NCBI GenBank assembly: GCA_022561215.1
Contig: JADFRQ010000013.1
Span: 653 to 64,652, forward strand
DNA length: 64,000 nucleotides
DNA from: Chloroflexota bacterium
GTDB lineage: Bacteria > Chloroflexota > Anaerolineae > Anaerolineales > E44-bin32
Reading direction: 5' to 3'
The notes under the pieces are model-generated. The model did no database searches. It was not told the origin of the DNA and saw only the letters and a list, made by a program, of their open reading frames with translations. The stretch's first letter is position 1. Each line of letters starts with the position of its first letter. The translations under genes were made by a program, and so were the position numbers. Shown here one piece after another: positions 3,139 through 21,678 of this stretch.

Positions 3139-3308
3139 CAGATTATTGCAAGGCGCAGCTAAAGTCCGCTTCTGAGGTGGGCGTGTTCGACAACAAGTTG
3201 ATTTTGGTGTCGCTGCCGTTGAACAGCTGCCTGTCGATATTCCTCCCATTAAGCCTCGTTGCCATTCGTCTGCTACGTACAATAGATGCATCGAAATGAG
3301 GTGCGCCT

Positions 3309-3863
3309 ATGGCCTGGATCAAGATCATCCACGAAAACGAAGCGGACGGCGAACTTAAAGCCGCTTATGCGGAACTAACCGAGCCGTGGGGCGGTGTGGA
3401 TAACATCATGAAGATCCACAGCCTCAACCCACCGTCCTTGGCGGGGCATTCCGCCCTCTACCGAACTTTGATGCGCGGCCATTCCGACCTGACAATCGTG
3501 CAGCGCGAGATGATCGCAGTTGTGGTCTCAGCGCTCAACCGCTGTCACTATTGACTGCGACATCACGGAGCGGGACTCCGTCGACAGACGCGTGACGCCG
3601 AGCTGGTCGAACAACTGATGGCGGACTTCCGTCAGGCGCCATTGAAAAGCTCAGATCGGGAGATGCTTGACTATGCCACGAAACTGACGCGAGAGCCGTG
3701 GAACATGGCGGAACAGGATGTCATCTCCCTGCGTGAAGCGGGCTTCAGCGATGAGGCAATCCTCGATATCAACCAGGTTACGGGTTACTATGCCTTCGTA
3801 AATCGGCTGGCGGATGGCCTCGGTGTTGAGCTGGAGGCGTTTTGGAAAGAGGGAAGAGAGTAG
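3309..3863 (+). CDS. AhpD-like / carboxymuconolactone-decarboxylase-family peroxidase-related protein, candidate selenoprotein (in-frame TGA at 3552-3554)
   Basis: ORFs 3309-3554 and 3618-3863 are in the same frame with no other stop between them. The joined sequence reads ...SALNRCHY-TGA-LRHHGAGLRR..., so the TGA falls on the second Cys of the family motif C-x-Y-C-x-x-HH. The C-terminal half (REPW..., INQVTGYYAFVNR) is also typical of this family. Confidence 0.6.
3565..3581 (+). promoter_or_regulatory. SECIS-like hairpin downstream of in-frame TGA
   Basis: ACGGAG-CGGGA-CTCCGT: a 6-bp stem with a G-rich 5-nt loop, starting 10 nt after the TGA at 3552-3554. Confidence 0.4.
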
Positions 3864-18675: not shown

Positions 18676-19875
18676 GTGCGCAGGAGCAGGAATTCCCCAG
18701 CGATTGAAATTGCCCTCAATCGAGCAGTTCCCCTAGGCCTTCTTTTTATGTTGGCTCTGTCGAGCTGTGGAGCAAATCTGCCCCAAGTTCCGAACCAGGA
18801 GCAACCATCTCCGCAGGAAATGCCTGATCAGGTGCCAAGTGACATTCCGCAAAAAAAACCTATTGTAGAGATTCCTTCGCTCACACCACCATCTGAACAA
18901 GGTGGGATAAACACATCATTTATCCGTGATAAGGTGACCGAAGGAAATGGAAACTGGCCCTTCGTACCACTCGACAATCCGGAATTTGTCACCGCCGATC
19001 AGGCCACGTATATCGGAGCTCTCGACCTTGTGCTCGGGGTCTCTTTGTATGGTGAAAGCAAGGCCTACCCCATCAACATGATGTGGTTTCATCATGTGGC
19101 CAATGACACGATTGGGGGTCATCCCATCGCGGTAACCTACTGAATAGTCTGTAGTTCAGGGGTTGGGTTCAACCCCGTAATCGATGGTCGAAGGTTGAAT
19201 TTTGAACTCTTTGGTCTCTACAATGCGGTGATGGTGATGAGCGACAGAGAGACGGGGAGCATATGGTCTCATATAGGGGGCACGGCCCTCTATGGGCCGA
19301 GCAAGGGAGCCCAGATGGAGCTGCTGCCACTCCAGCTTACAAGCTGGGAAAAATGGCTGGAGCTACATCCCGATACATTGGTCTTATCTAACGATACGCC
19401 TTATCAGGAATGGTACACCAACATAAGCCTTGGGAGTTCATCCCTGGGCCCCGAATTTGTCGCTAGCATTGTCTACTGGGACACGCGCCTTACGCACAAC
19501 CGCTTGGTTTTGGGTGTAACCGTTGATCAGGCATTCCGCGCCTATCCGCTCGACAGGGTTGCCGCCTCCGGCGGTGTTGTCAACGATATTTTGGCAGATC
19601 GACCTGTTGTTGTGGTGGTAGATGATCAGAGCGTATTCTCCATTGCGTTCTCAAGGGAGATAAACGGGCAAGTGTTGAACTTCGAACGTACAGGCGCAGA
19701 TTCTCTTCAACTCGTCGATAAAGAAACTGGTTCCATTTGGAACCTCGAAGGTCTTGCAATCGATGGGCCCCTGGAGGGAGAGTCTTTGTCCTTTGTCACC
19801 TCCTTCATCACCGAATGGTATGGTTGGTCCGCCTATCATCCCGAGACCGAAATCTACGCGATCGCGAATCCTTGA
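18676..19875 (+). CDS. DUF3179-family lipoprotein, candidate selenoprotein (in-frame TGA at 19141-19143)
   Basis: GTG start after an AGGAGAGG RBS; lipobox LALSSCG. ORFs 18676-19143 and 19195-19875 share one frame with no other stop between them. The junction reads PIAVTY-TGA-IVCSSGVGF...LYNAVMVMSDRETGSIWSH, matching the DUF3179 core (TYCPLC.SG...D.ETGS.WSQ, from memory) with TGA on the first Cys. Confidence 0.6.
19159..19176 (+). promoter_or_regulatory. SECIS-like hairpin downstream of in-frame TGA
   Basis: GGGGTTG-GGTT-CAACCCC: a perfect 7-bp stem with a GGUU loop, starting 15 nt after the TGA. Confidence 0.45.
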
Positions 19876-20382: not shown

Positions 20383-21496
20383 TTATTCCTTTCGAAAGGA
20401 AAGTGGACTTGTGCGGGCTCCGGCCAGGTCGACCAGCTTCTCTGCCGTCTTGGCATACAGCTGCGTGGTGCGGATGCTGCGGTGGTTGAGGAAGCGCTGT
20501 ACCTGGTCGATGGGGACCCCTTCGCCGAGCATCTGCGTCGCCCGCCAATGACGAAAATCATGCGGGTGAATATGCGGCAGCCCCAGTTTTCGAACAGCAT
20601 TGTGGATCATGCGCCACACGGCATTGGATGAAAACGGTTTCCCACGGTACTCCGGCCGCGTGCGCGCGTGGCTTACAAAGAGCGCAGCTGCACCGGGATC
20701 GTTCCTTAATCCCAGATACTTGCGCATCGCTTCCAGGGTTGGCTCCGTGAAGCGCAGGATCACCTGTCGGCCGTAACGACCGCGGCCCTTGCCGCGCACA
20801 GAGATTTGCCAGATTGCCTGCGCGTTCAAGCGCGCTCCACGCACCTCATCCGCAGTGATGCGTAAAATTTCACTTACACGTGCCCCGCTATCCGCCAGCG
20901 CATAGAGCAGGCTTCTGTTGCGGCTGTTCTCCAGCCGCCTGCGATGCGCTTCTTTTAAAGGGAGATCATCCGCGATCTCGATGGCATCAAAGGCATGGAT
21001 CAGCTCTTCGATGCCCTCCGGCGGCTCCGGAGCAGAATCCCGTGATTGTGACATTGGAATGTAGGTGCTCAGCCTGCGCTGCGCCTTGCTGATTGCTGCT
21101 GATGCGGGAAAGCGCTCGTGGAGCAGGAGCTCATCAGCGAGATAGCGAAACCAGGAGATCAACGCCTGGCCGTACAAACGCACGGTTGCAGGTTCGAGAG
21201 GCAGCCCTGAGCCAGCAGGTGAGACCGACTTTTTTACCTCCTGCCCCAGGTAGTTGACAAACCAGGCCAGCATATTGACGTCGTTAGTGGAGGCGCCCAG
21301 CTCGGAGAGCAATCGCTCCTGCGGGGACGGGCCGGTGAAGGACAGGCTTGCGGATAACGGCGATCCTTCAAGAAAAGCATAAAAATGCTTCACCGCATAG
21401 CCGTAGGTCTGCAGCGATGCCGGACTGAGATTGCTTTGCGAACAGAAGGTAGCGAATGATTCTTTGAGTGTGAAACTGCGGTCAGTAGTCATCATA
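20383..21496 (-). CDS. tyrosine recombinase / phage-type site-specific integrase
   Basis: The catalytic set is visible: GARVSE (R), KGRG (K), HDFRHWRA (HxxR), LNHRSIRTT (H) and QLYAK (Y). I prefer the start at ATGATG 21496; the longest ORF extends to 21642. Confidence 0.85.
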
Positions 21497-21559
21497 ATTT
21501 TTGAATAGAGTGTGTTGCATGAAATGTTCCGTTGATTCAATTCTTTATGATTATCGTAC

Positions 21560-21678
21560 GGGCGAAGCACACGGCTAGCAGGCACTCGCCTTCCAGCTTG
21601 GGAGATTGGACAACTTCTGGTTGTTTTCCCAATCTCCTGCAAAGAGAAAACTCACTCCAATTTGAACGTGCTTCGCCC
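21560..21678. other. long-range inverted repeat enclosing a 14-bp hairpin, adjacent to the integrase 5' end
   Basis: GGGCGAAGCAC (21560-21570) pairs with GTGCTTCGCCC (21668-21678). The inner hairpin is GGAGATTGG-ACAAC-ttctg-GTTGT-tttc-CCAATCTCC (21601-21637). Confidence 0.35.

Follow-up and report, generated by a model that had tools for sequence, protein, structure and literature searches.

The window analysed here is a 64-kb stretch (64,000 nt) of the Chloroflexota contig JADFRQ010000013.1 (assembly GCA_022561215.1), and it carries a 555-nt AhpD-like gene whose frame contains a single TGA codon. Two open reading frames (ORFs) on the forward strand, at positions 3309-3554 and 3618-3863, lie in the same frame, and the TGA at 3552-3554 is the sole interruption. 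The frame starts at the ATG at 3309 and ends at the TAG stop at 3861-3863, spanning 184 codons. Its read-through product would have 184 residues including selenocysteine (Sec) at position 82, in the context ...VVSALNRCHY-[TGA]-LRHHGAGLRRQ.... An earlier sequence-only reading of this DNA had joined the two ORFs into one frame broken only by TGA 3552-3554 and had given this 184-residue product with the same context; both hold on the sequence. A Shine-Dalgarno-like motif stands 5 nt before the ATG (Table 1).

The window matches public metagenome scaffolds at three loci (L171-L173; ENA CHEN21-1_SAMN18835368 and LIUR22-1_SAMN17320294); scaffolds that carry it include CHEN21-1_SAMN18835368-S003_METAG-scaffold_311 and S001_METAG-scaffold_126. 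The species-representative genomes contained no exact match to the window, and the protein of the neighbouring NMO gene led solely to metagenome scaffolds, 63-65 kb long. In the public annotation of these scaffolds the AhpD-like gene is split into two unrelated ORFs with no family assignment, of 81 and 81 residues in L171 and L172 and of 81 and 66 residues in L173. Three public assemblies, drawn from two BioSamples, agree in every base of the 555-nt gene. The TGA is one base from a Cys codon and could in principle be a sequencing or assembly error for a true TGC or TGT; however, the identity of the gene in independent assemblies excludes such an error, and the TGA is also found in all 80 of the nearest genomic relatives described below. 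We therefore regard an error as the least credible of the explanations considered here.

To assign the family, profile searches of the joined protein were run with Cys in place of the TGA. The protein matched TIGR01926, the NCBIfam "peroxidase-related enzyme" family, at 141.9 bits (cutoff 81.8), with residues 2-173 aligned to model positions 1-173 of 178, a match that spans the TGA. The Pfam CMD family PF02627 also matched the joined protein. The score for canonical AhpD, TIGR00777, was below the cutoff (21.4 bits versus 191.95), indicating that the protein is AhpD-like and not an AhpD ortholog. The cutoff of NF041238, the AhpD-related CFYUT (seleno)protein, was likewise not reached (49.1 bits versus 175). 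By sequence comparison the nearest solved structures were 2pfx (E = 4.7e-34), 3c1l (1.3e-32) and 6k40, with E values ranging to 4.5e-27, and the 2pfx and 3c1l alignments covered about 150-160 residues. All three have C-x-Y-C at the site, where the second Cys falls in the TGA column, and the joined protein is predicted to share the all-helical CMD/AhpD fold. The sequence-only reading had named an AhpD/CMD-like peroxidase-related family, had placed the TGA at the second catalytic Cys and had called for a hidden Markov model (HMM) search and a column check with the Cys-substituted protein. The family and the catalytic column are both borne out, the first by the full-length TIGR01926 match and Pfam CMD, the second by the Cys found at the column in Cys-form homologs and in 2pfx, 3c1l and 6k40.

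The AhpD-type active-site pattern, Glu-x11-Cys-x-(Tyr/His)-Cys/Sec-x3-His, is present as Glu67, Cys79, Tyr81, Sec82 and His86. In alignment A1, Glu67, Cys79 and Tyr81 were invariant and His86 was kept in at least 90% of the sequences. Proton relays have been described for Mycobacterium tuberculosis AhpD (Glu118/Cys130/His132/Cys133/His137) and for PA0269 (Glu36/Cys48/Tyr50/Cys51/His55) (PMC3141380). Using the offset of the HMM alignment, the spacing of the five residues is the same as in both of these relays.

Table 1. Coordinates of the AhpD-like gene, its active-site codons and the other candidate Sec features of the window
Feature	Position	Strand	Basis
Probable AhpD-like (TIGR01926, CxxU) selenoprotein coding sequence, complete	3309-3863	+	Single-TGA frame; HMM; PDB match; three identical assemblies
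Shine-Dalgarno-like GAGGTG, 5 nt before ATG 3309	3298-3303	+	Read from the sequence; putative function
Glu67 codon, equivalent to Glu118 in the proton relay of M. tuberculosis AhpD	3507-3509	+	Invariant R-E-M in A1; spacing
Cys79 codon, first residue of the CxxU motif	3543-3545	+	Invariant in A1 and in all motif-matched loci
Probable Sec82 TGA, site of the second Cys of C-x-Y-C	3552-3554	+	Codons of relatives; Cys in 2pfx, 3c1l and 6k40
His85 codon, preceding His86	3561-3563	+	Invariant in A1
His86 codon, equivalent to His137 of M. tuberculosis AhpD	3564-3566	+	At least 90% conserved in A1; spacing
Candidate bacterial Sec insertion sequence (SECIS) hairpin	3565-3581	+	Minimum-free-energy fold; comparative hairpin test
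DUF3179 gene	18676-19875	+	TGA 19141-19143 in V-T-Y-[U]-I-V-C; Pfam PF11376, 231.9 bits across the TGA
DUF3179 hairpin GGGGTTG/GGTT/CAACCCC, 7 bp, 15 nt after the TGA	19159-19176	+	
TlpA/ResA-like redoxin gene (thioredoxin fold, lipoprotein-like leader)	about 37625-37005	-	TGA 37337-37335 in W-T-F-G-[U]-I-N-C
TlpA-like hairpin ATTCCCTC/GTT/GAGGGAAT, 8 bp, starting 18 nt after the TGA	37316-37298	-	

Two scans of one-genome-per-species contigs yielded 161 motif-bearing loci. The codon at the Sec column was TGA in 135 of these, TGC in 16, TGT in 8, AGA in one and TTA in one. All of the closest 80 loci (55-75% identity) have TGA; they come from metagenome-assembled genomes (MAGs) labelled Chloroflexota, Acidobacteriota, Marinimicrobia, Gemmatimonadota, Planctomycetota, SAR324, Calditrichota and others. 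The window copy is at most 75% identical to that of any species-representative genome searched. The 24 Cys-form loci (TGC or TGT) read N-x-C-x-Y-C-x-x-H-H, with Cys in the same column. Over the 80 closest loci the mean identity to the window protein was 63% before the TGA and 61% after it, and in every one of them the frame stayed open for 95-110 codons beyond the TGA.

These data bear on the possibility that the gene is a pseudogene, in which a nonsense change from TGC or TGT to TGA in a Cys-type AhpD-like gene has left the downstream part to decay. The in-frame stop does yield two 81-codon ORFs, which is how the public annotation calls the gene, and the 64-kb window holds no Sec machinery. 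Against this, the TGA is shared by 135 related loci from many phyla, among them all 80 of the nearest, and the full-length HMM match crosses it. Since conservation is equal on both sides of the TGA and the frame is open in every locus, a pseudogene is excluded by these comparisons, and we consider decay extremely improbable. The sequence-only reading had likewise favoured recoding over decay, and it had named as contrary evidence orthologs truncated at this point with degraded downstream sequence; none was seen among the 80 loci.

Many full-length homologs, about 182 residues long and 55-70% identical, came out of a search at the protein level. At the TGA column these mostly carry "W", with a few R, G or L, and Cys appears in more distant ones. 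Such entries could mean that a standard amino acid is inserted at the UGA, either through a reassigned code (Trp or Gly under table 4 or 25) or by near-cognate read-through, and the catalogues do give "W" at the column for the majority of close homologs and "G" for two. However, the "W" homolog that was checked at the DNA level, P0002 (locus L081), has a TGA codon there, and its locus does not give that protein under table 11, indicating that Trp was a gene-calling choice on a short contig. Of the 17 confident genes of the window, 6 moreover end at a normal TGA stop, one of them being the NMO gene immediately upstream, which excludes a reassigned code. The column holds the redox Cys in the Cys-form clade, a conserved hairpin follows the TGA forms only, and Trp or Gly at the catalytic Cys site would abolish CxxC chemistry. 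Decoding as a standard amino acid thus has a very low probability. The close homologs P0002-P0050 mostly show Trp at the catalytic column, apparently since genes on short contigs were predicted under a code in which TGA is Trp, a practice that hides selenoproteins. Two other, metagenomic homologs have sense codons one base from TGA, AGA (Arg) in P0001 (L082) and TTA (Leu) in P0011 (L083), with the hairpin intact; errors in the reads or inactivating mutations of recent date may account for them.

Translation might instead simply stop at 3554, so that the locus yields the N-terminal 81 residues as a fragment and perhaps, from the ATG at 3618, a second protein of 81 residues. An ATG starts both ORFs, and termination competes with Sec insertion at every UGA Sec codon. 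Yet neither half matches a stand-alone family, the HMM match requiring both, and the 63 nt from the TGA to the ATG at 3618 encode the conserved H-H-G-x-G-L-R-R-L in frame. The first fragment would also be without the second redox residue and the relay His. Termination as the normal fate of this gene is therefore most unlikely.

The hairpin that follows the TGA has a 6-bp stem, ACGGAG (3565-3570) pairing with CTCCGT (3576-3581), and an apical loop CGGGA (3571-3575). It begins 10 nt past the UGA, with its loop starting 16 nt past the UGA, and it belongs to the minimum-free-energy fold of the 81 nt around it, in agreement with the sequence-only reading, which had pointed to this hairpin ten nt downstream. 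Bacterial SECIS elements have been described as stem-loops directly downstream of the UGA whose small apical loop includes a guanosine (PMC1088965), and the features of the window hairpin agree with that description.

The hairpin was compared between TGA and Cys forms in a register-free test, in which each sequence was searched on its own for a hairpin with a stem of 5 bp or more whose loop starts 16-28 nt after the UGA. Such a hairpin at SECIS distance was present in all 121 distinct TGA forms compared to 54% of the 24 Cys forms. G-C pairs averaged 3.9 in the TGA forms compared to 2.0 in the Cys forms, and a G lay within the first two loop bases in 90% of the TGA forms. The Sec-form sequences are mutually related, so that the following p-values overstate independence and mark upper limits of significance: over the 45 nt that follow the codon, the folding energy was -10.9 kcal/mol in the TGA forms versus -6.5 kcal/mol in the Cys forms (Mann-Whitney p = 6e-8); compared to synonymous-codon shuffles, the folds of the TGA forms were more stable (Wilcoxon p = 6e-9); and at one stem pair, which shows a compensatory change from C-G to U-A, all four sequences with a 3' A have a 5' T (Fisher p = 0.007). 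These four sequences carry the labels of two different phyla. The small G-containing loop found 16-28 nt after the UGA in all Sec forms supports the SECIS assignment made in the sequence-only reading.

Several results weigh against reading the TGA as a Sec codon served by this hairpin. Taken as a single sequence the hairpin is ordinary, the 81-nt fold having z = -0.55 relative to dinucleotide shuffles, and an equal or better hairpin arose in 19% of synonymous-codon shuffles that keep the same peptide. It is across the relatives that the pattern goes beyond chance, in the shared TGA column (135 of 161 loci) and in the hairpin of all 121 distinct TGA forms. With the register fixed over 82 aligned sequences, 80.5% of cells were paired compared to 79.5% in shuffles, and changes on both sides were seen in only two stem pairs. 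The conserved peptide H-H-G-A-G-L-R imposes part of the hairpin. No Rfam SECIS family was found in the whole window at the gathering threshold or in 3500-3660 at an E-value threshold, the hits being at chance level only. Furthermore, no selA, selB or selD was detected with Pfam or NCBIfam among the 30 proteins scanned in the 64-kb window, a set that includes both of the joined Sec candidates described below (DUF3179 and TlpA-like), and a tRNA scan of the whole window found no tRNA gene and hence no tRNA-Sec. ARAGORN found no tRNA-Sec near the AhpD-like gene in the loci of relatives that it was run on.

The weak covariation in the fixed register is explained by the encoding of the hairpin in a conserved peptide and by the use of shifted registers in relatives. 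Examples of the latter are CGGAGC/GCTCCG (loop CGGGCT), GACGGG/TCCGTC, GGAGA/TCTTC and GCGGCGG/TCGTCGC. A separate arrangement was observed in a clade of Sec forms with H-H-A-R-N-L-R-Q-L after the UGA, comprising Chloroflexota MAGs, several of them sponge-derived (L053, L059, L062-L065, L072 and L079), and also L146, L147 and L150. These sequences are without the usual proximal hairpin; in its stead CTCCGTCAGTTGAC(N)GGAG occurs, displaced downstream by about 10 nt, with a stem of the form CTCCG.../...GGAG. This hairpin is apparently a relocated SECIS.

In two further genes of the window the frame contains a single TGA, which stands at the site of a redox Cys (UxxC) and is followed by a 7-8 bp hairpin. 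One encodes a DUF3179 protein, in which both the TGA and the hairpin are kept in five Dehalococcoidia/Chloroflexota MAGs, and the other encodes the TlpA-like redoxin. Both families are listed among the known selenoprotein families (PMC13188914), and Dehalococcoidia MAGs are reported to be among the selenoprotein-richest bacteria (PMC13326102). Relatives of the TlpA-like protein that contain the motif (n = 78) comprised 77 Cys forms and one Sec form with the same hairpin (Caldilineaceae, L248), in a scan biased to Cys forms because one search pattern included the Cys residue. A relaxed scan of the window for TGA in CxxU and UxxC contexts gave no Sec candidates beyond the three genes. Since two other genes of the window combine a redox-site TGA with a strong hairpin, there is strong, indirect evidence that the organism uses Sec.

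Two side observations were made at these loci. Cys-form TlpA-like loci (L174, L189, L200, L211 and others) have hairpin-capable sequence about 20-40 nt after the TGC or TGT, an example being ATTCCTTC/CTT/GAAGGAAT, which codes for I-P-S-L-K-E-W. Such sequence could represent a SECIS fossil that outlived a change from Sec to Cys, or an earlier palindrome that eased a change from Cys to Sec. About 500 bp downstream of the DUF3179 gene lies a tyrosine recombinase gene of the phage-integrase family (20383-21642, reverse strand).

Taking the evidence on both sides together, we conclude that TGA 3552-3554 very probably encodes selenocysteine in the AhpD-like gene. The region 3309-3863 would then be translated into one 184-residue thiol/selenol oxidoreductase (TIGR01926, COG2128), with the UGA decoded as Sec. 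Following the standard bacterial pathway, the hairpin at 3565-3581, which lies within the coding region, would act as a SECIS element that binds the SelB-GTP-Sec-tRNA(Sec) complex. The SelB complex would bring Sec-tRNA(Sec) to the ribosome while the UGA is in the A site, in competition with release factor 2. By homology, the product would carry the redox motif Cys79-His-Tyr81-Sec82, with Glu67 and His86 at the spacing of the AhpD relay. It would most likely cycle between selenol/thiol and selenenylsulfide states, parallel to the dithiol/disulfide cycle of AhpD, and, as homology suggests, the target of reduction in this cycle would be either a peroxiredoxin partner or, without an intermediary, hydroperoxides. 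The frame, the family membership, the Sec/Cys column, the conservation of the TGA and of the coding sequence beyond it, and the conserved hairpin are seen in the sequence data themselves. The dependence on SelB, the insertion of selenium, the substrate and the choice of the nucleophile between the two redox residues are what we infer here, from the likeness to these known systems.

AhpD-like selenoproteins were first reported in 2005 from the Sargasso Sea metagenome, as 27 sequences of COG2128 with a CxxU motif (PMC1088965). The 2008 Global Ocean Sampling (GOS) study listed "AhpD-like 1" (COG2128, CxxU) with 299 sequences as the fourth most abundant family (PMC2398784), a 2026 review lists "AhpD-like protein, TIGR01926, CxxU" (PMC13188914), and the family can be browsed in BSepDB (PMC13326102). 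The statement in the sequence-only reading that AhpD-like families include Sec-containing members was thus correct (PMC1088965, PMC2398784, PMC13188914). The window protein shares with this family the TIGR01926 assignment, the CxxU motif with Sec at the second Cys and the hairpin with a G in its loop after the UGA, and Cys-containing homologs of the family are widespread. Nothing essential differs; the window copy is from an uncultured organism resembling Chloroflexota and is publicly annotated as two ORFs.

With M. tuberculosis AhpD (TIGR00777) and Pseudomonas aeruginosa PA0269 the window protein shares the CMD/AhpD core and the relay Glu-x11-Cys-x-(His/Tyr)-Cys-x3-His, and its Tyr81 matches the Tyr of PA0269 at the x position. 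It differs from these in not being an ortholog, in having the probable Sec in place of Cys and in having no adjacent ahpC: comparison of 80 loci revealed neither ahpC nor any other functional partner, no neighbour being conserved beyond close relatives. The closest relatives with structures, 2pfx, 3c1l (Mlr4105) and 6k40 (AhpD), align over nearly the full length. These are Cys forms, and their C-x-Y-C motif is followed by A-H-G-A or S-H-G-A, in contrast to the hairpin-bearing H-H-G-A-G-L-R of the window protein. NF041238 (CFYUT, "hypothetical protein 1" of the Sargasso Sea) is also AhpD-related and has Sec at the same CxxU position; it is nevertheless a different family, since the window protein aligns only to the C-terminal part of the 357-position model.

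The archetype of bacterial SECIS elements is that of Escherichia coli fdhF. The window hairpin is likewise located in the coding region just 3' of the UGA and has a small apical loop containing G. It differs from these elements in that it is short (6 bp), shows no evident bulged U and has no Rfam match.

The window gene is a previously unannotated member of a well-known selenoprotein family, and it adds no biology beyond the 2005 description. Its value lies mainly in annotation, where two meaningless 81-residue ORFs become one enzyme with a predicted antioxidant or redox function. Along with the other two candidate Sec genes of the window, the AhpD-like gene marks the organism as a probable selenium user. 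A broader and more speculative proposal, which we hold to be rather unlikely, is that an undescribed Chloroflexota lineage rich in selenoproteins, with three Sec genes within 64 kb, is the source of the window and that the SECIS is evolutionarily mobile in the AhpD-like family. If this mobility is real, the family would offer a natural series on what SelB requires of a SECIS in a constrained coding sequence.

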